From contig RDXM01000083.1 in NCBI GenBank assembly GCA_004292595.1, positions 79,215 through 143,214 of the forward strand: a stretch of DNA of 64,000 nucleotides. Reading direction: 5' to 3'. Below the pieces are notes generated by a model. That model was not told the DNA's origin. It saw nothing but the letters and a program-made list of their open reading frames with translations, and made no database searches. Shown piece by piece: positions 21,474 to 62,377 of this stretch (the first letter of the stretch is position 1; the number at the start of each line of letters is the position of its first letter). Source of the DNA: Candidatus Kapaibacterium sp. Its GTDB lineage: Bacteria; Bacteroidota; Ignavibacteria; Kapaibacteriales; UBA4661. The translations under genes were made by a program, and so were the position numbers.

Positions 21474-23630
21474 TTAATAGCGACCAAACTCGCTGTCATC
21501 AAGGCGAATGGTGTCGTGTGCGGCGAGCATTTTTTGCGACGGTGCCGCAAGGTGCGCATCTTCTTTTTCTAACGATGCTTTTCTTGCATTGCCACTAGCA
21601 ACGCCGCTTTGCTGATACGCTTGCCCGCTATAATTCTTGTGCTTTGAAGGCATTTCATGTTTCAGTTTTGGGGAAGAACCATGATGCAATGACCCCGCTC
21701 CAAACGAGGAGTCTTGGCGCAACTGAAAGCGCGAGCTGACAACATTATTCAGTTCAACCGCTTGTTTAGAAAGCTCTTCGGCGGCGGCGGCGCACTCTTC
21801 GGCGGCGGCGGTGTTTTGCTGCGTTACGCGGTCAATCTGCGCAAGCCCAATATTAACTTGCGAAATACCTTGCGCTTGCTCATTCGAGGCAGAAGCAATT
21901 TCACCAACAATATCACGGACTTTCACACTAGCAAGCATGATTTCTTCGAGTGCCTGCGCGGTACGAGCAGCAATTTGTGTGCCTCTATCTGCGGTTTCGA
22001 CCGCAGATTCAATCAAATCTGCTGTTTCTTTCGCCGCTTTCGCGCTGCGTGCTGCCAAGCTCCGCACCTCTTCTGCGACCACCGCAAAACCCTTTCCATG
22101 CCGCCCTGCACGCGCCGCTTCCACAGCCGCATTCAGCGCAAGCAAATTCGTTTGGAAAGCAATTTCGTCAATGACTTTGATAATTTTTGAAATATTTCTG
22201 CTGGATTCGTTAATTGCCGACATTGCACTGCCAAGCTGCTCCATTTCTGCATTTCCACGTTGAGCAATGCTATTTGCATCCAAAGCAACAATATTTGCCT
22301 GATTTGCATTCTCAGCATTGATGCGGGTTTGCGAGGCAAGTTCGTGCATGGAGCCAGTAATTTCTTCCAATGCTGCTGCCTGCTCCGACGCACCATGCGA
22401 GAGCGACGTGCTTGCGTCGGCTACTTGCGACGCGCCACGCGTTACTTGCCCAATAATTTCCATTACATTTTGCAGAACATCAGCAATCGCGCTAATCGTG
22501 GAGTTGATATTTGACTTCAATGCCGCGTGGTCGCCTTTGTAATTGCCTTGCATTGGCTGGCGCAAATCACCCTCAGCCATATGCTTCAGCACCGATACCG
22601 CTTCTTGAATGGGATAAATCGTGGCATCCAACGTAGAATTTACGCCCGCAATAATGTCGCGGTACGCACCGTGAAAATGCTTTTCGTTGCCGCGTGTTTT
22701 CAGGTCGCCGCTTGTGGCAGCCTTTGTCAGCCCGTTGGTTTCTTCGGCAAGGTCTTGAATTGTCTGAACAATTTGCTTCTTCATCCTAGCGAGGTCGCCC
22801 ATTTCATCGAGGTTTGAAATGCTAAAGGAAATATTTTTCAAGTCGCCCACAGCAACCTTCGCATTCACTTCTTGGAGAAGTTTGATGGGCTTGACAAGGA
22901 ATCCGGCAATCAGGAAAATAGCAAGAATAATGCCCGCCGATGACAACCCAACAATCGAAGCAATCACCAAGGATTTTTCCGCCGTTGTTGCCTGTACCTC
23001 GTTCAAGCTCATGCTTACTTCAAATGCTCCATGCACTTCGCCTACTTTCCAGTTTTCCATTTTCGCGCCCGTTATGTCCTTGCCCTCAGAGTTTCCCCAC
23101 AATGCTGCTGATTCTGCTGGGTCGCCATGACATTGCATACATTCTTGCGTCAATTTTATCGGGCGGAAGTAGTGCAGTTGATTGGTGGCAGCATCTATTT
23201 CTTGATATTCGGTCAGCGTACCATCTTCAAGTTTTCTCAGAACAGCAAGCTCATTTGCATTTGGCTCATTGTCGGGATTGCGCGGTTGAATTTTCGGAAC
23301 TTTTATCGTAAAGCCTAGTTCCCGTGCCTTTTTCCGCGCTACTTCCATTGCCGAAAAAATCGGAATAGTATGCAAAATCTGCTCGGTGGTAAAGTTCGAT
23401 GAGCGCACATCTTTGAATACGCCTTGTTTTATCTGGTCGGCGGCATATTCGCGGGCGGACTCTGCCGCATAGACCAGTGTTCGCGCCTTATTCACGAGCG
23501 CATCAGTCGCGGCTTCGCGGTAAATTTTTGAAAAATACCAGTATGAAACAGCACCGCTCGCAAGAGAAATAATGACAATCGGCAAAATAAGTTTCCAGCG
23601 AATAGGCAAAGAAAGCCACCAGTTTTTCAT
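21474..23630 (-). CDS. Methyl-accepting chemotaxis protein with a periplasmic CxxCH (c-type heme) sensor domain (DUF3365/Tll0287-like).
   Basis: TM1, then a periplasmic domain ending [47 protein letters not shown], then TM2, HAMP repeats and the MA core [35 protein letters not shown]. The likely start is the internal Met [10 protein letters not shown]. Confidence 0.8.
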
Positions 23631-23794
23631 GGTATAGTCTCCAAAAATATAGTACAATCGTGTAATACAGTCGTATTGTACAATCAAACACGAAAAAAAT
23701 TTATTGATTTATTGGCACAAAAAGCTCTCTGTTCTTGCTTTCACACCCATTGCGTACCTTGCCCAGAATCTTTCTTGCTCTGAATTATTGCTCT

Positions 23795-23933
23795 CCTCTG
23801 TACACGACAAAACCTCTGAAAGGTGCATAAAATCAGGCTTCAGTGGCTTGAGGCTTCTTGCCTGTGTTTGTCGTCTGAAACCCGCACCAGAATGTCTGTG
23901 CCACTATGAAAGGAGTTTTGTCGTATACAGAGG
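23795..23933. repeat. MITE-like element of about 139 bp with 19 bp terminal inverted repeats (cctctgtacacgacaaaac / gttttgtcgtatacagagg). Copy A.
   Basis: The core taaaatcaggcttcagtggcttgaggcttcttgcctgtgtttgtcgtctgaaacccgca recurs, inverted, at about 31442..31566. The TIRs were read directly. Confidence 0.55.
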
Positions 23934-23954
23934 TTGCTCTCGTTATTGCTCTCA

Positions 23955-26477
23955 TTATTGCTCCAGCATTTCCAATACTTCCAGCGCACCCTCATTCAAC
24001 GATAAAACAGCATCAACATCAGTAATCAAGCCAATTTCACCGTTGCTGAGTATCATGCAGCCTGTTACGCCTTTCACGCTGCCCACATAGTCCGAAAGCC
24101 CCTTGACAACGATTTGCTGCTGCCCGATAATTTCATCCACAAACAAGCACGCACGTCGCTCGCGGGCTTCGACCACCACCAAAATTCCTTTCTGCAAATT
24201 TGTTGTTTGTGGTACAATGTCATAGACTTCATGCAAACGAATGACCGAAAACAAATCCTCTCTCACGCGCACCACTTCTTGCCCATCCATCGTAATCGTG
24301 ATAGCTTCGGGCTGCGGGCGAAACGATTCTCGAATAGAAAGTATCGGCAGGGCGTACACTGCTTGACCAACACGAATCAACATTCCTTCCATAATCGCTA
24401 AGGTCAAGGGAATACGCAGCGTGAAGCGTGTTCCCAAGCCCTCTTTGCTGTCCACCGTAATGCTGCCTTGCAACTTTTCGATATTCCGCTTCACAACGTC
24501 CATTCCCACGCCACGTCCCGAAATATCCGAGATTTTATCAGCAGTAGAAAAGCCCGGCTCGAAAATAATTTGAAAAACTTCGCGGTCGGTTACTTTGTCG
24601 GGAGCGGTTTTGATAATTCCTTTAGAAACAGCTTTATCCAAAATTTTCTGCCGATTCAATCCGCCACCGTCATCTTCAATAATAATCAAAATTTCATTTC
24701 CTTCGTACCGAGCTTGTAGTTTCACAACGCCTGTTTCGCTCTTTCCTGCTGCAATGCGCCGTTCACGGCTTTCTACGCCGTGGTCTATCGCATTGCGAAG
24801 AATGTGCATGAGCGGGTCGGAGATTTCTTCAATAACGTTTTTATCCATTTCCGTTTCCGCGCCAGAAATCACCAAGCTAATTTTCTTGTCGAAGCGCATG
24901 GACACGTCGCGCACGAGGCGTTTCATTTTATTGAACAAGCCTTCAACAGGTGTCATACGAATTGACATCGTTACTTCCTGCAATTCGCGGGTAATTTTAT
25001 TCAGCATTCCTGCTGCCCGCGTGAAGCTCTGCAATTCCAACGCAACCACTTCAGGATTGCTTGTTACCATTGTTTCAATGGTAATCAACTCGCCAACCAA
25101 ATCAAAAAGTTTATCCAATTTTTCGGTATCCACACGAATATCTTTGCGCTGGGCAAGCCCAGATGCCGCTTGCGGAGCGGCGGCTTGCGTGGCAGACGAT
25201 TGCATCGCCACTGGCGAAGGAGCTTGCTCAATGTTTGCCGACACTGCTTCTGGCAATACGTCCGAAGAAGCGAATTTTGGTATGTCGTTATGCAGCGCAG
25301 CAGCAGCCTGTATGCTGTGTGCAGGAATATCCTGTATATGTACGGATGCGGGTTGTGCAGAAGATACCTGCGCTGGCGAAGCCGAAAGGGTCGCAGTTTG
25401 GACATTCTTTGCTTTAGCAGCCTCCTTAGGAGCATCCTGCTGCTGCGAACTCACGCTCGGTGCATTGGTCATAAGTGCTTGCACGGCAGTTTTGATGATG
25501 TCGATATTGGTCAAAATCATCGAAATCAAGCCTGGATAAACCTCAATCGCCTTTGAGCGCACGGCATCAAGGATATTTTCCAAATCCATACTCATATCTT
25601 CAATTTCTGCAAAGCCCATAAAACCTGAGTTTCCCTTAATGCTATGCACTGCACCAAAGACATCGGCGACAATGCCCATATTGTGGGGGTCTTGCTCCAA
25701 AATCAAGCACCCATCTTCGACACGAGCAATCAGGTCGAGTGCTTCGGCAACATAGCGTGCAAGCATTTCACCTGTGGCGGCGGCGAGTCCTGCTCTATCG
25801 GGGAAGTCCGACTCAGAAGCTACTGGTGCAGCAACTGGAGGTGGTGGTGGTGTTTCTTCGCTGCTCAGAAGCGCGAGTTGGTCGTCATTAAAGAAAAAAT
25901 CGGTATCGGAGAAGATAGATTGAGATTGAAATTGCGTAGCAGCGTGTGTATGAGCTTCTGGATTGGCGGAAGAAGAAAACGACGGAGCAAACATTGGCTC
26001 TTCGCTCGGCACAAAAACTTCTTGAGATGGTGCGTGAGATGCTGGTGGCTTGGAAGCACTCTCAAGCCTTCCTCCGCCAGACTTCAGCAGTGTAATTGCT
26101 TGCTGCAAGCGTCCGATAAGATTTTTGACAGAGACTTCCTGTCCAGTATCTTTCAGCGAATCACTCACGGTATTGAGCAGGGTGCGAATAACGTCAAATG
26201 CCTCGTAAATAATACCGATGATGTCTTCATTGGGAATCCCAGTCATATTGCGCAGAATGTCCAGCATTGTTTCGGACTCATGCGTTACGGTATTGATGGT
26301 GTTAAAATTCAAAAAGCCCGACAGTCCCTTAATCGTGTGGAAAACGCGAAAAATGGAATGAATACTCTCTCGATTCGAGCCATCGGCAATATCCTGAATA
26401 CGACCTTCCTGCTCATCAAGTGAGTCTAATGATTCGGCAACAAATGCGCGGACTATCTCCAGCGTTTCACGATCCAT
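23955..26477 (-). CDS. cheA: Chemotaxis histidine kinase CheA with two tandem Hpt (P1) domains.
   Basis: P1 domains HSIFRVFHTIKGLSGFL and VFGAVHSIKGNSGFMGF, a dimerisation domain, an HATPase domain (IIIEDDGGGL...GRGVGMDVV) and a C-terminal CheW-like P5. Confidence 0.9.
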   Translation of the reverse strand: MDRETLEIVRAFVAESLDSLDEQEGRIQDIADGSNRESIHSIFRVFHTIKGLSGFLNFNTINTVTHESETMLDILRNMTGIPNEDIIGIIYEAFDVIRTLLNTVSDSLKDTGQEVSVKNLIGRLQQAITLLKSGGGRLESASKPPASHAPSQEVFVPSEEPMFAPSFSSSANPEAHTHAATQFQSQSIFSDTDFFFNDDQLALLSSEETPPPPPVAAPVASESDFPDRAGLAAATGEMLARYVAEALDLIARVEDGCLILEQDPHNMGIVADVFGAVHSIKGNSGFMGFAEIEDMSMDLENILDAVRSKAIEVYPGLISMILTNIDIIKTAVQALMTNAPSVSSQQQDAPKEAAKAKNVQTATLSASPAQVSSAQPASVHIQDIPAHSIQAAAALHNDIPKFASSDVLPEAVSANIEQAPSPVAMQSSATQAAAPQAASGLAQRKDIRVDTEKLDKLFDLVGELITIETMVTSNPEVVALELQSFTRAAGMLNKITRELQEVTMSIRMTPVEGLFNKMKRLVRDVSMRFDKKISLVISGAETEMDKNVIEEISDPLMHILRNAIDHGVESRERRIAAGKSETGVVKLQARYEGNEILIIIEDDGGGLNRQKILDKAVSKGIIKTAPDKVTDREVFQIIFEPGFSTADKISDISGRGVGMDVVKRNIEKLQGSITVDSKEGLGTRFTLRIPLTLAIMEGMLIRVGQAVYALPILSIRESFRPQPEAITITMDGQEVVRVREDLFSVIRLHEVYDIVPQTTNLQKGILVVVEARERRACLFVDEIIGQQQIVVKGLSDYVGSVKGVTGCMILSNGEIGLITDVDAVLSLNEGALEVLEMLEQ

Positions 26478-30686: not shown

Positions 30687-30759
30687 AAAAACCTCACGAA
30701 CAACACAAATGGAAAAAGATGTGAATTACTCGAAATAATCAGCCTTGAAGCTACGAAAG

Positions 30760-30777
30760 TGCAGACAATTCTGCACG
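30760..30777. promoter_or_regulatory. Perfect 7 bp inverted repeat (gtgcaga-caat-tctgcac) in the divergent promoter region. Candidate operator.
   Basis: Read directly. It lies in the AT-rich gap between the divergent transporter and GNAT genes. Confidence 0.25.
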
Positions 30778-30888
30778 AAAAATATTTTTTTGAAAAAGCA
30801 AAAAATGTATTTGCATTTATGTAAATACTTACGCAATTTTATACGCAATAATAAACGCAAATTATTACCAAAAAAAATAACAAAATCT

Positions 30889-31425
30889 ATGACTTTTCGC
30901 ATCCGCCCCGCAAGCGAAGCAGACAAGCCGCAAATGCAAGCACTCATCATAGAATCCGTGCGCGAACTGAGCAAAGCCGAATACACGGAGGAGCAAATTC
31001 AAGCCGCGCTGAATACCGTTTTTGGTGTTGATTCTGAACTTATTAAAGATGGAACGTATTTTGCCGTTGAAGAAGAAAATACAATCGTTGCCTGTGGCGG
31101 CTGGAGTAGGCGTAAAACCTTGTTTGGCGGCGACCAGTTTGCTGCACGGGAATCAGAACTTCTCGACCCCACGCGCGATGCCGCGAAAATACGCGCTTTC
31201 TTTGTGCATCCAGCGTGGTCGCGGCGCGGAATTGGTTCGTTGCTCTTGCATCATTGCGAAGAAGCGGCACAGGCGCAAGGATTCACGCGCTTGGAGCTTA
31301 TGGGAACGCTTCCGGGCGTAAAACTCTACCGCGAACATGGCTTCGTTGCTGGTGAAACCATTCAGCATGATGCAGGAAATGGCGTACTTATTCCCTTCGT
31401 ACCGATGTCGAAAACTCTTGAGTAA
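30889..31425 (+). CDS. GNAT family N-acetyltransferase.
   Basis: The start MTFRIRPASEADK, then the acetyl-CoA binding motif RRGIGSLLL. It runs about 178 aa from the internal Met of the track ORF. Confidence 0.8.
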   Translation: MTFRIRPASEADKPQMQALIIESVRELSKAEYTEEQIQAALNTVFGVDSELIKDGTYFAVEEENTIVACGGWSRRKTLFGGDQFAARESELLDPTRDAAKIRAFFVHPAWSRRGIGSLLLHHCEEAAQAQGFTRLELMGTLPGVKLYREHGFVAGETIQHDAGNGVLIPFVPMSKTLE

Positions 31426-31441
31426 AATAAAACACATCTTC

Positions 31442-31566
31442 AATAGTGGCACAGACATTTTTGTCTGTAAGTGTTGATGCGGGTTTCAAGCGACAAACAC
31501 AGGCAAGAAGCCTCAAGCCACTGAAGACTGATTTTACTTGTCTCACAGAGTTTTTGTCGTGTACAA
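31442..31566. repeat. Partial, inverted copy B of the MITE-like element at 23795..23933.
   Basis: The reverse complement matches copy A across gtacacgacaaaa...taaaatcag(t)cttcagtggcttgaggcttcttgcctgtgtttgtcg...aatgtctgtgccactat. The TIR at the GNAT-proximal end is missing. Confidence 0.5.
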
Positions 31567-31613
31567 AGGTCTCCGCTACCGAAGCCAGTTTTTTTCACCT
31601 TTCTTTTTTTGTT

Positions 31614-32591
31614 ATGGACTTCTTTCAACGCGCTGGAAAACTCGCCTTTGGTAGCTATTTACGCCGCTTGGGTGAGCAGATGTATCAATGGTCGTCGGAG
31701 GTGTATTCGTTGTACGAATTACAGCTTGATGTCCGCTATTTTCCTGTGTTTCAGTCAATTTCATGGCTGGAAAAACCGACTGTAACCGCGATTGCACACT
31801 ACGTCGGGCAGACACACGCTGGCGTAAGCCAAATTCTCAAAGAACTCGCCGCGCAAGGCTACATCACGCTTGCAAAGAATAGCAACGACAAACGCCAAAC
31901 AACGATCACCCTCACCAGCAAAGGCAAACGCGAGCAAACCCGCTTGAATACACTTATGCAGGACTTAGAAGGCGTGATAACAAATGTTTTTGCTGAGTGC
32001 GCCACGAGTCCCCTTGCGGCATTGCAGGATTTTGAACGCGCAATGCAACAACGAAATTTGGTGGAACGAGTAGAAGAGCGGCGCAAGCAGACGATGACCG
32101 ACAGCATCAGCATTTTCCCGCTTGCGCGACGTGGCTCGAAGCGTCGCACAGAGCAGCTTGCAGGCTTTCGTGCGCTCAATTATGCGTGGATTCAGGAGTA
32201 CTTCAGCGTGGAAGAATCCGACAAAAAAGCTCTCGACCATGCGGAAGAGTATATCATCAAGCGCGGCGGAACGATACTTTGTGCCGAGCGACAAACCGCC
32301 GAAGGCAGAGAAATACTCGGCTGTGTGGCACTTGTCCCGCACGACGAACAAACAGTGGAATTAGCAAAAATGGCGGTTTCTAAAGCATTGCGTGGGCAGA
32401 ATGTCGGCTTTTTGCTTGGCGAAGCAGCATTGCAGAAAGCCCGTGAAATGGGCGCTCATCGGGTGTATTTGGAAAGCAATACTGCACTGAAGCCAGCAAT
32501 AAATCTGTATTACAAGCTCGGTTTTAAGCGGCTTGCGAACTTTACGTCGCCCTACGAGCGAGCGAATATTGCGATGGAAATATGGTTGTAA
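31614..32591 (+). CDS. MarR-family HTH regulator fused to a C-terminal GNAT acetyltransferase domain.
   Basis: The N-terminus SWLEKPTVTAIAHYVGQTHAGVSQILKELAAQGYITL is a MarR-type winged HTH. The C-terminus LRGQNVGFLLGEAALQKAREMGAHRVYLESN is GNAT-like. The start is approximate (internal Met MDFFQRAG), and the track's upstream extension overlaps a repeat. Confidence 0.65.
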   Translation: MDFFQRAGKLAFGSYLRRLGEQMYQWSSEVYSLYELQLDVRYFPVFQSISWLEKPTVTAIAHYVGQTHAGVSQILKELAAQGYITLAKNSNDKRQTTITLTSKGKREQTRLNTLMQDLEGVITNVFAECATSPLAALQDFERAMQQRNLVERVEERRKQTMTDSISIFPLARRGSKRRTEQLAGFRALNYAWIQEYFSVEESDKKALDHAEEYIIKRGGTILCAERQTAEGREILGCVALVPHDEQTVELAKMAVSKALRGQNVGFLLGEAALQKAREMGAHRVYLESNTALKPAINLYYKLGFKRLANFTSPYERANIAMEIWL

Positions 32592-38319: not shown

Positions 38320-38420
38320 ATACCATTTCGATTGTAAAATGAATAGTTTCAATTCTCCGAAACAAGGCAGCATGCTGCCTTGCTCAAATCAAAGTATTCA
38401 AAATACAGTCAAAACGGTAT
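38320..38420. repeat. Copy 3 of the roughly 105 bp triply nested palindromic element (core at 38363..38382).
   Basis: The reverse complement is about 90% identical to 866..970 over the full length, including all three stem pairs. Confidence 0.6.
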
Positions 38421-42926: not shown

Positions 42927-43727
42927 ATGGAAACCGTGATTGCAAATACTCTTCAAAATACCGACCTTCTGAACTCTAACTACGACGAGGACGGCACGTA
43001 TTACCCTGAATCCGATGGACAACATATGGCAAATAGTTCCGTACATTTTGAACGCATCGCAACAACGAAATACGGCTTAGAATCGCTCTTTGCTGACCGC
43101 GATGATGTGTTTGTGGCAGGTGATTTATTTTGGTATCCCGTTAAAGGAGAAACGCGCCTTGCTGTCGCACCAGATGTAATGGTAGTGTTTGGTCGTCCGA
43201 ACAATGAGCGAAAATCCTATAAGCAGTGGAATGAAGAGAACATCCCGCCGCAGGTCGTGTTTGAGTTTCTCTCGGAAAGCAATACCGCAGCAGACGTGAT
43301 AAACAAAGCTATCTTTTTCGAGCGTCATGGGGTACAGGAATACTACATTTACGACCTCAGAACAAAGGAACTAAGCGGTTTTATCCGCTACACCGAAAAA
43401 GACAAGCAACTCGAAGAACTAGCGGATATGAACGATTGGAAAAGCCCACGCTTAGGCATTCGCTTCGATATGTCCTCAGGCGAACTGGTGCTGCGCAAGC
43501 CAGATGGAGAGCCGTTCTTGAGCTATGCTGAGGTTGAGCAAGAACTGCAAGAACGCACACGGCAACTGGAGCAAACAGAGGTAAAACTTGAGCAAACAGA
43601 GGTAAAACTTGAGCAAACAGAGGTAAAACTTGAGCAAACACAAATACAACTTTCGGCAAGTGAATCTCGCGCAGCAGCATTGGCAGAAAAACTCCGTGAA
43701 CTCGGCATCAACCCTGATGCACTATAA
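42927..43727 (+). CDS. Uma2 family (DUF820) PD-(D/E)xK endonuclease. Copy 1, with an in-frame 21 bp x3 tandem repeat near the C-terminus.
   Basis: YPESDGQHMANS...DLFWYPVKG...PDVMVVFG...PQVVFEFLSESN is typical Uma2. The peptide repeat QTEVKLE x3 is encoded by gagcaaacagaggtaaaactt x3 at about 43567..43630. Confidence 0.8.
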   Translation: METVIANTLQNTDLLNSNYDEDGTYYPESDGQHMANSSVHFERIATTKYGLESLFADRDDVFVAGDLFWYPVKGETRLAVAPDVMVVFGRPNNERKSYKQWNEENIPPQVVFEFLSESNTAADVINKAIFFERHGVQEYYIYDLRTKELSGFIRYTEKDKQLEELADMNDWKSPRLGIRFDMSSGELVLRKPDGEPFLSYAEVEQELQERTRQLEQTEVKLEQTEVKLEQTEVKLEQTQIQLSASESRAAALAEKLRELGINPDAL

Positions 43728-47984: not shown

Positions 47985-48686
47985 TCACAAAGCATCAGGA
48001 TTCATGCCGAGTTCACGGAGTTTTGCCGCAAGTGTAGCGGTATATGTTTTGGTAGCGTCCAGTTCAGCACGGGTATCATCCAATTCCGCATTAATTTCTG
48101 CATAGCTTAGAAATGGCTCTCCATCAGGCTTTCTGAGGACAAGCTCACCTGACGACATATCAAACATAATCCCCAAGCGCGGACTTTTCCAATCGTTCAT
48201 ATCAGGAATTTCTTCCAGTGCCTCATCGTTTTCAGTGAATCGAATAAGACCGCTTAATTGCTTGTGTTCAAGGTCGTAAACGTAATATTCCTGCACACCG
48301 TATCGCTCAAAAAATGCGGCTTTTCGCATCATTTCTGACTGCGTATTGGAATCAGACAAAAACTCAAACACCACCTGCGGCGGCGTATTTTCTTCGTTCC
48401 ACTGGCGATACGATTTTCGCGCTCCCTTGGGACGACCCAATGCCACCATCACATCAGGCGCGACCGCAATCTTCGTCTTGCCTTTGACGGGATACCAAAA
48501 TAAATCCCCTGCAACAAATACATCATCACGGTTAGCAAAGACAGATTCTATGCCGTGTTTCGTTGTGGTGATGCGCTCAAAGTGTTCAGAACTGTTTGCC
48601 ATGGGTTGTCCATCGGAATCAGGGTAAAAAATATCGCCTTCCCACGACGAGAGATTTGGCAAAGCCTGTAAAGTTGCGGTTTCCAT
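47985..48686 (-). CDS. Uma2 family endonuclease. Copy 2, an inverted paralog of 42927..43727 that lacks the tandem repeat.
   Basis: About 75% amino-acid identity to copy 1 along the whole length (YPDSDGQPMANS...DLFWYPVKG...). The start is taken at METATLQ. Confidence 0.8.
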   Translation of the reverse strand: METATLQALPNLSSWEGDIFYPDSDGQPMANSSEHFERITTTKHGIESVFANRDDVFVAGDLFWYPVKGKTKIAVAPDVMVALGRPKGARKSYRQWNEENTPPQVVFEFLSDSNTQSEMMRKAAFFERYGVQEYYVYDLEHKQLSGLIRFTENDEALEEIPDMNDWKSPRLGIMFDMSSGELVLRKPDGEPFLSYAEINAELDDTRAELDATKTYTATLAAKLRELGMNPDAL

Positions 48687-48803
48687 AGCATTTTTCCTGC
48701 AAAAGTGGGCGAATTGTCTCCACCGAAATATAGAGTTTTTTGGGGCAAAAGTCAAGAGCGATAATGCTCTACATTCAACAAACAAGCCGCATAGAGAGCT
48801 TTA

Positions 48804-53781: not shown

Positions 53782-54363
53782 CTACAAAGAAATTTCGCCC
53801 AACGTGAGGGAAAAATTTGGTAACACATCTTCACCAAATAGAACACTGTCCGCACCTTGCACAAGAGTAACAGAGCTATCTGCACGGTAAATATGTACCT
53901 CCAAAGTATCGGCATTGATAAGCCACGCCAAGCGGCAACCGTTCTTTATCCATTCCTGCATTTTTGCTTGTAGATTCGGCAAATGGTCGCTCTGGGACAT
54001 GAGTTCAATCACGAAATCAGGGCAGATTGGCGCGAAGCGTTTTTGCTCGCTCTCGGAAAGGGCATTCCAGCGTTCATATGTGATGAAAGCGGCATCGGGA
54101 GAGCGCACGGCTGTATTCGGAAGTTTGAAACCTGTGGAAGAATCAAAAATTCGTCCGCTTTTGTATTTCAAATTCCATATTCCTAAATAAATGATAATGT
54201 TTGCATTGCGTGTTCCTGTTTCACTTCCAGTTAAGCCCATGATAAAAATTTCTCCTTCGGCAGAGCGTTCAAATTTTAATTGTTTATTTGCTTGGCAAAA
54301 TGCGAAAAACTGCTCATCGCTGAGTCCACCAAGTGTATCGAATTTTATTTCTTGGACTTCCAT
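53782..54363 (-). CDS. Uma2 family endonuclease. Copy 3, short form.
   Basis: 193 aa with FERSAEGEIFIM...PDAAFITYERW...PDFVIELMSQSD, matching the PD-(D/E)xK Uma2 core. Confidence 0.7.
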   Translation of the reverse strand: MEVQEIKFDTLGGLSDEQFFAFCQANKQLKFERSAEGEIFIMGLTGSETGTRNANIIIYLGIWNLKYKSGRIFDSSTGFKLPNTAVRSPDAAFITYERWNALSESEQKRFAPICPDFVIELMSQSDHLPNLQAKMQEWIKNGCRLAWLINADTLEVHIYRADSSVTLVQGADSVLFGEDVLPNFSLTLGEISL

Positions 54364-58454: not shown

Positions 58455-58650
58455 CCCGTAACTGGTCAGGTCATAATTTTTTTGGACGCAGATGAAGATG
58501 ATGGAATGGATGAAGATGATAAAAAAGCAAAAAATATCACAGATGGGATGAGGTATGTATTCATTCCTTTATTCTCTCATCTTCATCCATCCAATCATCT
58601 TCATCTGCGTCCCCATCTTCATTGCTGAGACCTGACCAGTTACGATTTTC
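58455..58650. repeat. Long imperfect inverted repeat (about 65 bp arms, about 55 bp spacer) in the sucA upstream region.
   Basis: The arms are ccgtaactggtcaggtcat...gacgcagatgaagatgatggaatggatgaagatgat and atcatcttcatccatccaatcatcttcatctgcgtc...gacctgaccagttacg. The spurious track ORF 58353..58628 covers this region. Confidence 0.5.
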
Positions 58651-58722: not shown

Positions 58723-59661
58723 ATGAATACCACATCAATTTTTTCTCGTTTTTTGCTCATACTTGCGTGTTTTTGTTGCCTCGAAGGCGCATCAAGAGCC
58801 AGTTTAATGGCACAACCAGCCCCAGAAGCACAATGGCAAACGGGGAATCGAATTATGGTCAGAGGCGGCGTTGCGCTGCCGCTCTTTGGCTATGGTGCCT
58901 TGCCGATTACCATCGCAGACTTTACCCCACAAGAAGGACGCACACCAGTAGGCGCAGCAATGCTTGGTGGCACATTCGGCATTGGCACAATGTATCGCTT
59001 GCATCCGAGCGTCGCGGTTATCGGCGGCATTGATGTCAATTACAATCCATACAATACCGTCGAAGCAGAGAAAAACCTCCGCACCAGCATTGGTGCTATC
59101 AACCTTCTGGGATTAAACGTCAATTTGCTCTCGTCAGCACTGGCAAGTATTTTGCAATCGTCCGCAGCATTTTCCGCAGAACCGCATATCAACGGCACAG
59201 CACTCGCGGGCTTGCGCTACGATGTGCAGATTGTGCCAGCCGTTTTAAGTGCCTACGTTTCTGGCGAGCTTGGCGCAATGTTTGGCGTTTTTCCTAAAAC
59301 ACAATCCAAAGTAAACATCACCATTCCGCTTTTCAACATCAACACGGATATTATCAATTCTATCAATCAAACAAGCGGATTCGGCTTTGCATGGGCTGTC
59401 GGTGGCGGACTTCTGGTGAGCGAGCGCGTGAATATCGGTGTGCGGTATTTGGCTGCTTCGCCCACGTACACAAGCCAAATTGCGAATACTGTCGAAACAC
59501 GCGGCGGAGCGACTGGCACAATCAATATCCCGATTCCGGGCATTGGGCGACTCAGCTCGCAAGATATTATTGCTTCTATCTTAGGCGCGTTCCCTGCCCG
59601 CGAAGCACCATTTACCTTGCCAACAACCATGCTGCAATGCACTATCAGCTATGCTTTTTGA
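58723..59661 (+). CDS. Putative outer-membrane beta-barrel protein.
   Basis: Signal peptide, alternating hydrophobic beta-strand patterns, and a C-terminal aromatic residue (..TISYAF). Confidence 0.45.
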   Translation: MNTTSIFSRFLLILACFCCLEGASRASLMAQPAPEAQWQTGNRIMVRGGVALPLFGYGALPITIADFTPQEGRTPVGAAMLGGTFGIGTMYRLHPSVAVIGGIDVNYNPYNTVEAEKNLRTSIGAINLLGLNVNLLSSALASILQSSAAFSAEPHINGTALAGLRYDVQIVPAVLSAYVSGELGAMFGVFPKTQSKVNITIPLFNINTDIINSINQTSGFGFAWAVGGGLLVSERVNIGVRYLAASPTYTSQIANTVETRGGATGTINIPIPGIGRLSSQDIIASILGAFPAREAPFTLPTTMLQCTISYAF

Positions 59662-60618: not shown

Positions 60619-60802
60619 CTACGTTTGCTCATCAGAGATCTGAAAAGCTCATGAAAAGCGCATAAATACTAATTAGGACTTTCGCAAAACGTGCTTTTGA
60701 AGCTCACAGACAGGAATGTCTGTGCCACCAAAGCCAGTATTTATCAGTTTTGTAGTGGCACAGGCATTCTTGCCTGTGAGGTTTGCGAAAGTCCTACTAA
60801 TG

Positions 60803-62377
60803 TTATTCCATTGCCACGCTCACGCTTTCTGCTACGCAGACTGGTTTGTCGCTTCCGTCGCGCTCGACAACGAGGTCGAGATAGACTCTATGCCCGCCAG
60901 GACCGCTTTCCACTTCGCGCAGCACCGCACTCATACGCAAGCGGCTTCCCGACGGGACGGGCGAGATAAAACGGACTTTATTGTAGCCATAATTGAGCAT
61001 CATTTTCACGGAGTCAATCGTCATCAAACCATAGAGAAATTGCGGTGTGAGCGCGAGCGACAGTAAACCGTGTGCAATGGTTGTGCCGAAAGGCGATTGC
61101 GTTTTGGCACGCTCTACGTCCACATGAATCCATTGCTGGTCGAGTGTTCCGTCGGCGAAAGTTTGAATCATATCCTGCGAAACGTCTTGCCACGCCGAGG
61201 TGCCGAGCTTTTTGCCGATAAACGTTTTCATTGCTGCAACGTCGCGGAAACGCACACCGTATTCACTCACGGTAACACCGTCAGGCAAGGCTTGCTCGGA
61301 AGACGTATCGGAAGCCGCATCGGTGCTTGGCTTTGGAGCATCTTCTTTAACTGCTGCTTTTGGCGGACGTGCTGCGGGCGCGTCTTCGCTGGGATTGTAG
61401 GCATCAGTTACCACCACCGCTTTGCCAATAACATCGCGCTTCATCAACGCATCAAGAGCTTGCGGCGCGTCGGAGAGCGCATAGACCTTATACACGTGCG
61501 GCTTGAGTTTGCCTTGCATGAAAAAATTTGCGAGTTCAACGGTATTTTGAAAGGCTTTCGTGGATTCGCGTTGTACAAAACTTCCCCAGAACACGCCCAA
61601 AATCGCGCATCCCTTCAAGAGTGCGAGATTGAGCGGTATTTTAGGAATATCGCCTGCGGCATAGCCAACGGTCAGATACCGCCCTTTCCATGCCATGGAG
61701 CGGATTGCAGGCTCGGCGTACTTGTCGCCAATGGGGTCGTACACGACATCCACGCCTTTTTCGCCGACAAGAGTTTTCAATGCTTCGCGCAAATCCTCTT
61801 CGGCGTAGTTGATGACGTGTTCGGCGCCTTTTTCCTTGCAAATAGCCAGTTTTTCTGCCGATGACGCAGCCGCAATCACGGTTGCGCCCATGAGTTTCCC
61901 TAATTCCACCGCAGCCAAGCCCACACCGCCACCGGCACCCAAGACAAGAAGCGTCTCGCCCGCTTTGAGTTCGGCACGGTCTTTCAGTGCGTGATACGAA
62001 GTTGCATGATTGTAGAAAAATGCTGCACCACTGACAAAATCTATCATCGGCGGGATAGGAACGCAGCGCGTGGCTTCGACCGATACTTCATCTGCCATGC
62101 CGCCCCAGCCCGTGAGCGCAAACACGCGGTCGCCCACTTTGAAGCCCTTTACGCCCTCGCCTACTTCTTTCACAACGCCCGTTACTTCGCCGCCGGGCGA
62201 GAACGGAAGCGGTGGCTTGAACTGATATTTATTTTGAATCATCAAGGTATCTGGAAAATTTACTCCGCAGGCTTTCACACTGAGAATAAGATGACCAGGT
62301 TGTAGTGTTGGTGCGGGTGCGTCGGTAAGGGTCAGCGTGTCGGGCAAGCCAAAAGCGGTACAAAGAAGAGCTTTCAT
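60803..62377 (-). CDS. Fusion of an MDR-family NADPH:quinone oxidoreductase (Qor-like) with a C-terminal MaoC-like (hot-dog) dehydratase domain.
   Basis: The N-terminus MKALLCTAFG...GVNFPDTLMIQNKY...LVLGAGGGVGLAAVELGK has the zinc-free MDR Rossmann motif. The C-terminus has the hot-dog fold pattern VSEYGVRFRDVAAMKTFIGKKLGTSAW...TIAHGLLSLAL. Confidence 0.75.
   Translation of the reverse strand: MKALLCTAFGLPDTLTLTDAPAPTLQPGHLILSVKACGVNFPDTLMIQNKYQFKPPLPFSPGGEVTGVVKEVGEGVKGFKVGDRVFALTGWGGMADEVSVEATRCVPIPPMIDFVSGAAFFYNHATSYHALKDRAELKAGETLLVLGAGGGVGLAAVELGKLMGATVIAAASSAEKLAICKEKGAEHVINYAEEDLREALKTLVGEKGVDVVYDPIGDKYAEPAIRSMAWKGRYLTVGYAAGDIPKIPLNLALLKGCAILGVFWGSFVQRESTKAFQNTVELANFFMQGKLKPHVYKVYALSDAPQALDALMKRDVIGKAVVVTDAYNPSEDAPAARPPKAAVKEDAPKPSTDAASDTSSEQALPDGVTVSEYGVRFRDVAAMKTFIGKKLGTSAWQDVSQDMIQTFADGTLDQQWIHVDVERAKTQSPFGTTIAHGLLSLALTPQFLYGLMTIDSVKMMLNYGYNKVRFISPVPSGSRLRMSAVLREVESGPGGHRVYLDLVVERDGSDKPVCVAESVSVAME

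Follow-up and report, generated by a model that had tools for sequence, protein, structure and literature searches.

Repetitive extragenic palindromic (REP) hairpins and their RayT partners have been studied mostly in Proteobacteria, and some E. coli REPs have been shown to act in cis. Transposition of the Y1/HUH (IS200/IS605) type is not expected to duplicate its target. In contrast, terminal inverted repeats (TIRs) combined with direct repeats of fixed length are the hallmarks of miniature inverted-repeat transposable elements (MITEs) and of a transposase making staggered cuts, typically a DDE enzyme. Here, we analyse two look-alike stretches, copies A and B, and a third element, C, in 64 kb of a Candidatus Kapaibacterium sp. 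contig, RDXM01000083.1; this whole stretch is referred to as the window. It is fairly probable that both A and B represent old and decayed copies of a single non-coding mobile element of about 140-150 bp, in which a core consisting of a REP dimer is enclosed in a MITE-like shell. The REP hairpins differ in class from a MITE with TIRs and target-site duplications, and the MITE features belong to the added shell.

Di Nocera et al. (2013, PMC3733652) described GTAG-tagged REPs forming dimers with their tags outside or inside, and reported from the verrucomicrobium Opitutus terrae a family, GTAG-20, that is headed by GTGG. The hairpins analysed here resemble the GTAG REPs and REPINs (PMC3733652; Bertels and Rainey 2011, PMC3116915) in many respects: a 5' GT[A/G]G tag, a stem of 6-13 bp with a short loop, compensatory changes in the stem, dimers 20-100 bp apart with the tags outward (A and B) or inward (C), sites downstream of open reading frames (ORFs) between co-directional or convergent genes, and RayT genes bearing the same hairpins. 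The consensus of the unit is a GTGG (GT[G/A]G) tag, an 8-bp stem CACAGRCA/TGYCTGTG and a TTCY loop. The core of A and B comprises two such hairpins, inverted, with the tags outward and 28 nt apart, and this 28-nt spacer is constant in the A-type dimers of the window, of the Ignavibacteria metagenome-assembled genome (MAG) bin62 and of a relative (locus L239). Within the GTAG/GTGG-tagged REP superfamily, the core would represent a REPIN-like unit, and its hairpin would be the type of single-stranded DNA that is recognised by RayT-type Y1 (HUH) transposases and spreads without target duplications. In contrast to the described REPs and REPINs, the dimer is located here inside an additional inverted-repeat shell with direct repeats, which has not been described for them, copies A and B show decay, and the fetched loci of this lineage yielded no RayT. 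With regard to GTAG-20, an Opitutaceae MAG (L063) is among the hairpin matches obtained here; the published consensus is given only in figures, and the supplementary files of PMC3733652 contain no REP consensus for the GTGG hairpin.

The initial annotation had described B as a truncated, inverted second copy of A, and this homology was borne out. Positions 23795-23889 of A align in inverted orientation with positions 31475-31569 of B at 86% identity over 95 nt, a further 43 nt align at 74% beyond a 14-nt indel, and an identical run of 36 nt is common to both. A nhmmer profile built from copies of other genomes only, and run on the 64-kb window, matched B (E-value 3.8e-24), A (3.9e-15) and C (about 2e-7) and no other site. 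The possibility that A and B are alike only by chance or through a short operator-like sequence, a shared regulatory motif that the initial annotation had itself named as the alternative, draws on the presence of palindromes and on nothing else. This explanation is already refuted, as the similarity exceeds 125 nt and includes shared non-functional changes, the profile E-values of A and B range from 1e-15 to 1e-24, and homologues are found at unrelated loci in other genomes.

Several structural details of that annotation require correction. The ends of A, CCTCTGTACACGACAAAAC and GTTTTGTCGTATACAGAGG, had been given as reverse complements; the inverted repeats exist, but they match at 18 of 19 positions. 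Copy B, placed at 31442..31566, is rightly located and slightly wider than this, and it has indeed lost one TIR, as only the end at 31551..31569 survives. The short palindromic insertion attributed to B is the ancestral, nearly intact REP hairpin at 31446-31469; it is A that carries a deletion instead. A non-autonomous transposable element remains an adequate description insofar as the family is non-coding and has TIRs, whereas the core is a RayT-linked REP dimer rather than generic MITE filler.

The state of the hairpins points to the order of events. The hairpins are intact in C and nearly intact in REP2 of B, and decayed in both units of A and in REP1 of B. As the outgroup copies all possess the REP hairpin that is partly missing in A, the indel is a 14-nt deletion in A. 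REP1 reads GTGGCTTGAGGC... in A and B and GTGGCACAGGCA... in all other copies. Because the destroyed stem arm is common to both, we infer that A and B were copied one from the other, or from a common parent, after REP1 had decayed. As REP1 had already been destroyed before this copying, the last step would have taken place via the shell or by recombination, rather than through RayT. Neither copy looks mobile now: half of REP2 is missing from A and one shell end from B, and no transposase was found among the ORFs scanned in the window; both are probably immobile fossils.

The A-type shell consists of TIRs of 17-19 nt (CYTTGTACACGACAAAA). In the window and the fetched loci, the end CTTTGTACACGACAAAA is present only in A (both ends), in B (one end) and in an element of bin62 (locus L040, 4440-4590). 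The latter is intact, has CTTTGTACACGACAA at each end and lies between direct repeats of 9 bp that match exactly (AAACAGAAC, 9/9). Copy B is 88% identical to it over 127 nt, and the shell repeat of B together with the next 5 nt makes up 24 nt identical to the L040 copy. With regard to the checks suggested in the initial annotation, a related element, C, is present in the window and a full-length homologue, L040, in another genome, and there are flanking direct repeats that read as target-site duplications, exact at L040 and with eight of nine positions matching at A, where the 9-bp duplication assumes that the element is bounded by CTCTG...CAGAG (23796-23932). The flanking-repeat evidence at A is weaker than at L040, as copy A is surrounded, from the cheA stop codon onwards, by several tandem units that measure about 11 nt and read GAGAGCAATAA on the coding strand (23774-23795 and 23933-23965); the first of these units is the 3' end of cheA itself, GAGCAATAA.

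Core and shell are separable, because five of the six other dimers with outward tags, in bin62 and L239, do not have any outer repeat. Few A-type copies were seen, namely two in the 64 kb of the window and one among five bin62 loci. The elements measure 123-151 bp, and the only ORFs crossing them are over-extended calls of neighbouring genes. The element resembles bacterial MITEs (for example Correia elements, Nezha and those derived from insertion sequences, ISs) in being shorter than 200 bp and devoid of ORFs, in its TIRs of 15-19 nt, in flanking direct repeats whose length is constant within a type (A type, 9 bp; C type, 5 bp), in its intergenic sites and in its ability to fold into a long hairpin. 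It differs from them in that its ends match those of no known parent IS, that few copies are seen, and that it encloses a REP dimer whose family also spreads shell-free. Ends of the CTTTGT type with a 9-bp duplication presumably resemble those of the IS903 group within IS5. In the fetched loci, A-type or C-type ends did not bound any long element, and blastn of the intact L040 element against a plasmid collection gave no match. The shell would be a MITE layer, with its 17-19-nt TIRs and 9-bp direct repeats, moved by a staggered-cutting transposase, typically of the DDE type. A REP dimer would have ended up within a small MITE, and the composite would then have been mobile as a unit.

Element C, which had been overlooked in the first reading of the sequence, exhibits the same nesting with a different shell. 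Its site, with convergent genes on either side, is 6 nt away from the stop codon at 60803, and the element comprises two inverted hairpins, CACAGACAggaaTGTCTGTGCCAC and GTGGCACAGGCAttctTGCCTGTG, within shell ends that match at 15 of 15 positions; its predicted fold is very stable (z -9.9). Exact 5-bp repeats of unrelated sequence flank C-type ends at C (CTAAT), L067 (AGATT) and L239 (GAAAA), whereas L040 is doubtful for a C-type duplication, as a second copy has the same right flank. REPs are expected to insert without target duplication, and the duplications of 9 bp at A and L040 and of 5 bp at C depart from this; the departure concerns the shell and not necessarily dimers that lack one. C-type shells enclose either a REP dimer or quite different hairpin pairs that are unrelated to the GTGG REP (L157 and L239). 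It is possible, and we put it forward tentatively, that REP dimers ride as cargo in at least two unrelated shells with TIRs and target-site duplications (of 9 bp and 5 bp), by which a RayT-dependent family could spread and outlast the decay of its hairpins.

Alternatively, the entire element might be a pure REPIN, a single long palindrome of the REP-doublet type with a RayT-type Y1 enzyme as its only means of copying; its outer arms would be lineage-specific extensions, and its flanking repeats would be due to chance or target preference. This is rather unlikely, although several observations agree with it: the core is a genuine REP dimer, the same REP is borne by RayT genes, REP units in other lineages also have conserved lineage-specific flanks, and the C-type end TAGGACTTTCGCAAA is found at a fixed distance of 8-15 nt from the REP hairpins in several copies. 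TIR families tied to Y1 transposases have also been described (PMC3733652). Nevertheless, Y1/HUH enzymes make no target repeats such as the exact 9 bp at L040 and the exact 5 bp, unrelated in sequence, at three C-type elements. Moreover, the outer arms are absent from most dimers of the same genomes, C-type ends also surround the hairpins unlike the GTGG REP, and the copying of A and B postdates the destruction of REP1. The described TIRYT elements, or 'TIRtrons' (PMC3733652), are similar in that they are small elements with long inverted repeats, sometimes partly self-complementary, in genomes holding REPs. In contrast to the two shells found here, they flank Y1 genes, share a GGGGWSAS motif and have no reported target duplications; both shells here lack GGGGWSAS and neither has been seen beside a Y1 gene. 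A REP dimer nested in a MITE-like shell remains the preferred reading, and the features on which it is based are listed in Table 1.

Table 1. Positions of copies A, B and C and of their parts in the window.
Feature	Position	Strand	Sequence	Remarks
Copy A	23795..23933	+		Composite element, complete yet decayed: inverted-repeat shell and REP-dimer core; from profile match and alignment
Copy A, left TIR	23795..23813	+	CCTCTGTACACGACAAAAC	
Copy A, right TIR	23915..23933	-	CCTCTGTATACGACAAAAC (minus-strand reading)	18/19 against left TIR
Copy A, left flanking direct repeat	23787..23795	.	ATTGCTCTC	8/9 against right flank
Copy A, right flanking direct repeat	23933..23941	.	GTTGCTCTC	8/9 against left flank
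Copy A, REP1	23843..23866	+	GTGGCTTGAGGCTTCTTGCCTGTG	Decayed; left stem arm changed from CACAGGCA to CTTGAGGC
Copy A, REP2 remnant	23881..23904	-	GTGGCACAGACATTCTGGTGCGGG	3' stem arm removed by 14-nt deletion
Copy B	about 31436..31569	-		Inverted homologue of A; one shell end intact, the other degenerate or lost
Copy B, REP2	31446..31469	+	GTGGCACAGACATTTTTGTCTGTA	Nearly intact
Copy B, REP1	31498..31521	-	GTGGCTTGAGGCTTCTTGCCTGTG	Same decay as in copy A
Copy B, shell inverted repeat	31551..31569	-	CCTTTGTACACGACAAAAA	Sole surviving shell end
Element C	60674..60796	+		Intact REP dimer, tags inward; shell inverted repeat TAGGACTTTCGCAAA; found by repeat search
Element C, REP hairpin	60705..60728	-	GTGGCACAGACATTCCTGTCTGTG	
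Element C, REP hairpin	60755..60778	+	GTGGCACAGGCATTCTTGCCTGTG	Exact cross-phylum 24-mer
Element C, left 5-bp direct repeat	60669..60673	.	CTAAT	
Element C, right 5-bp direct repeat	60797..60801	.	CTAAT	

The REP hairpin of the core extends far beyond this lineage. A scan of GTDB species-representative genomes with GTGGCNNNNGNNTTCTTGCCTGTG recovered at least 112 loci, nearly all of which contain the exact 24-mer GTGGCACAGGCATTCTTGCCTGTG. These loci belong to at least five phyla, namely Acidobacteriota, Planctomycetota, the Ignavibacteria/Chlorobi group, Verrucomicrobiota and Hydrogenedentota, with Bryobacteraceae, Solibacteraceae, Gemmataceae, the Ignavibacteria MAG bin62 and Chlorobi OLB5 as named carriers. 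A stem variant with one pair changed, GACA/TGTC, was found at no fewer than 120 metagenome loci with a GC content of 0.38-0.69. Of the 109 double changes in the stem counted across 200 distinct sequences, each at most six substitutions away from the consensus, 99 are compensatory and keep the pair, and the change of GGCA/TGCC into GACA/TGTC is present in 58 distinct sequences. About 1.6 Mb of fetched loci, which were chosen by the motif, contain 560 instances of the hairpin. Its local density reaches five units per 4.2 kb in bin62 (L083), and the 64-kb window contains three REP dimers. The 24-mer and its variants gave only unrelated primer matches in the searchable literature, and a scan of the window at Rfam gathering scores gave no match. 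A CRISPR repeat was rejected, as the CRISPR-DR24 model scored 17 bits against a threshold of 35 (E-value 1.3) in a permissive scan and no array is present. A known RNA family was likewise rejected: permissive Rfam scans of A, C and L040 yielded only sub-threshold matches resembling precursors of eukaryotic microRNAs, such as any long hairpin gives.

The link to RayT emerged solely from a targeted phmmer search, in which E. coli RayT and then its matches were used as queries. ORFs with a Y1_Tnp domain adjoin the hairpins in eight to nine of the 235 fetched loci. In L047, a hairpin is located 18 nt upstream of the RayT start codon, and in L182 the RayT gene is found between alternating REP arrays on both sides, the nearest hairpins being 9 and 12 nt away. 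The association was also seen starting from the protein: all four independently fetched homologues of the L047 protein on long contigs (10 of 10 places) have the exact hairpin upstream of the RayT start, at 17-25 nt or, in three P0230 places, overlapping the called start, with an inverted partner hairpin 97-217 nt upstream. Many homologues of the L047 protein are named 'REP element-mobilizing transposase RayT' by JGI. The RayT-like proteins have REP_Tyr_transpos as their top NCBIfam match and retain the HUH and Y motifs, as well as NHVH, WQ and YIxWNP. An all-versus-all BLAST of the ORFs within 1.5 kb of the hairpins returned only abundant paralogue families, such as TonB-type receptors and ABC permeases, without revealing a specific partner.

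By motif resemblance only, and not by a tree, these proteins are assigned to TnpA_REP subclass 2.4 (Quentin et al. 2018, PMC6006769; group 4 of Bertels), with which they share the NHVH, WQ and YIxWNP motifs, GT[AG]G REP flanks, an in-frame REP in some genes (L047 and L243-L245) and a patchy distribution among phyla. In contrast to that subclass, the REP within the gene is located here N-terminal of the HUH motif and not between HUH and Y, and the Acidobacteria loci have REPs mostly upstream and not on both sides. The in-frame variant, GTGGCACAGCCATTCCTGGCTGTG (L047 4350-4373; L243-L245 2111-2134), encodes ...TARNGCATK... near the N-terminus of RayT. The neighbourhood of the Acidobacteria RayT gene is fixed (N6/N4 methylase, DpnI-like endonuclease, RayT; L243-L251, and L047 3121-3888), which suggests that the gene is inherited vertically, in single copy, next to a restriction-modification system. 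RayT-like genes of a second type (L075 131-706; L047 5049-5480) are followed in both loci by a different, conserved GTAG-tagged palindrome, GTAGCGCCGGGCTTTGCCCCGGTTT... (L047 5480-5620; L075 650-760), which is probably their own REP.

With regard to the genomic setting, both placements were right as regards the genes named. Copy A occupies the spacer between cheA (23955-26477) and the gene of a methyl-accepting chemotaxis protein (mcp, encoding MCP, 21474-23633), both on the minus strand, and B is located between the genes of a GNAT protein (30745-31425, plus strand) and of a MarR-GNAT fusion downstream; all four gene identities were confirmed. Relatives with CheA 71-73% identical keep the gene order S8 peptidase-cheA-mcp-cheR-cheB. 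In one of them the cheA-mcp spacer is 60 nt long and element-free, and in another it contains no A-type element, the same REP dimers being found in the mcp-cheR and cheR-cheB spacers. The spacer between the GNAT and MarR-GNAT genes, which runs here from the stop at 31425 to the ATG at 31614, measures 36 nt in relatives (MarR-GNAT 70% identical) versus 188 nt. The presence/absence comparison proposed at the outset thus gave a partial answer: A and B are missing at the orthologous junctions, but no base-level empty site was obtained. In exact-protein look-ups of CheA and MCP for strain variants, neither was on record.

A different role would be that of a domesticated element, the hairpins being retained for an action in cis on the operons, as a stabiliser of mRNA 3' ends, an attenuator, an RNase target or a protein-binding site. 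According to PMC3733652, positions just past stop codons between co-directional or convergent genes, such as those of A, B and C, are the usual location of REPs. A and B are oriented alike with respect to transcription, and the predicted folds are very stable: copy A reaches -52.3 and -54.3 kcal/mol on its two strands (z -4.8 and -5.5 against shuffled sequence), and 0 of 200 shuffles folded as well. We nevertheless consider this role improbable. The hairpins of A and B have decayed through non-compensated changes and a deletion, the elements are missing at the same junctions in relatives, and Rfam returned generic sub-threshold hairpins instead of a family; the shared orientation proves nothing, because it is expected in half of the cases by chance. 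A scan of both spacers for sigma-70 promoters and terminators gave nothing above the shuffle background, with a consensus that may not suit this lineage. For old copies of a composite mobile element, the remaining effect would be that of very stable hairpins placed in the cheA-mcp and GNAT-marR/GNAT intercistronic DNA and RNA.

Two features of the che region were observed alongside the elements. In L239 (6440-6560), the cheA-mcp spacer of a relative contains other GTAG-tagged palindromes, for example GTAGAACGGGTTT...AAACCCGTTCTAC, at the place of copy A, and the spacers of the che operon gather hairpin repeats repeatedly. Just upstream of the mcp start, an operator-like palindrome (23648-23685) consists of GTACAAT, 16 nt and ATTGTAC; it includes the heptamer GTCGTAT, which is also found in the right end of copy A and may be due to chance.

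Several points weigh against a composite element of REP core and MITE shell. The nearest relatives show the absence of the elements and a different spacer length, and no clean empty site at base level, as they are only 70-73% identical at the protein level and their spacers are too diverged. The tandem array at A could account for part of its flank match. Only three copies with an A-type shell are known (A, B and L040), and the A-type shell end gave zero matches in the metagenome scan. No RayT was detected by phmmer in any fetched Kapabacteria or Ignavibacteria locus. The cognate transposase that the initial annotation had suggested looking for was not found in the window, whether with Pfam (38 of the 46 largest ORFs) or with Y1 queries in phmmer (all ORFs of at least 60 aa). 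Finally, the composite reading does not explain how REP dimers enter the interior of two unrelated shells.

Copy B also bears on gene annotation. An overlap between B and the 5' region of the MarR-GNAT gene had been reported, which is an annotation artefact, as only over-extended ORF calls reach B. The protein was called at 381 aa in the ORF list and at 345 aa in the NCBI record, and the deposited start falls inside copy B, the stretch concerned being 31554-31613. As the ATG at 31614 is kept in relatives and homologues are mostly of 314-327 aa, the annotated start is probably 20 codons too early and the deposited protein over-extended. A look-up of the esterase returned one 5-kb Logan contig (L001, SRR7244341), the only other assembly of this organism, which ends inside copy B at window position ~31497. 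This break point is located within the 36-nt stretch common to A and B, as expected for a repeat longer than the word size of the assembler.

The window contains other repeats that are distinct from these elements. A palindromic repeat family of about 103 bp, unrelated to the REP dimers, is present at 866-970 and, inverted, at 38320-38420, with a partial copy at 2711-2746. Its full copies are 93% alike, with inverted arms of 32 nt (TAATACCGTTTCTACTGTATTTTGAATACTTT) around a central hairpin (CAAGGCAGCATGCTGCCTTG) and no clear flanking duplication. Three paralogues of the Uma2 family (putative restriction endonucleases) are encoded at 42927-43727 (+), 47985-48785 (-) and 53782-54363 (-). Between the first and second paralogues, 552 nt are repeated in inverted orientation (76% alike, 4.5 kb apart), and Uma2 gene clusters adjoin the che operon in relatives too (L238 and L241). 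The 3' part of the first Uma2 gene exhibits five 21-nt tandem repeats (AACTTGAGCAAACAGAGGTAA; 43543-43668), which give a 7-residue protein repeat. A 41-nt inverted repeat (58484-58524 and 58572-58612), 90% complementary, with 47 nt between its arms and made of GATGAAGATGA-type units, is found in the spacer ahead of the ORF at 58723.

Both layers of the element are known kinds; what is modestly new is their nesting, the exact hairpin shared across phyla and the occurrence in Kapabacteria. For annotation, such hairpins break short-read assemblies, as in the Logan contig ending inside B, and mislead start-codon calls, as in the deposited MarR-GNAT protein, probably 20 residues too long. The only likely consequence of the window copies is a strong predicted hairpin inside two operons. 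For the family, a REP with its RayT partners is documented well beyond Proteobacteria, with a hairpin exactly conserved across phyla and dimers nested in MITE-like shells. If such nesting is general, two classes of selfish DNA would exploit each other, and hitch-hiking on cut-and-paste transposases, if true, may help to explain why at least five bacterial phyla share one 24-nt hairpin without a single mismatch.

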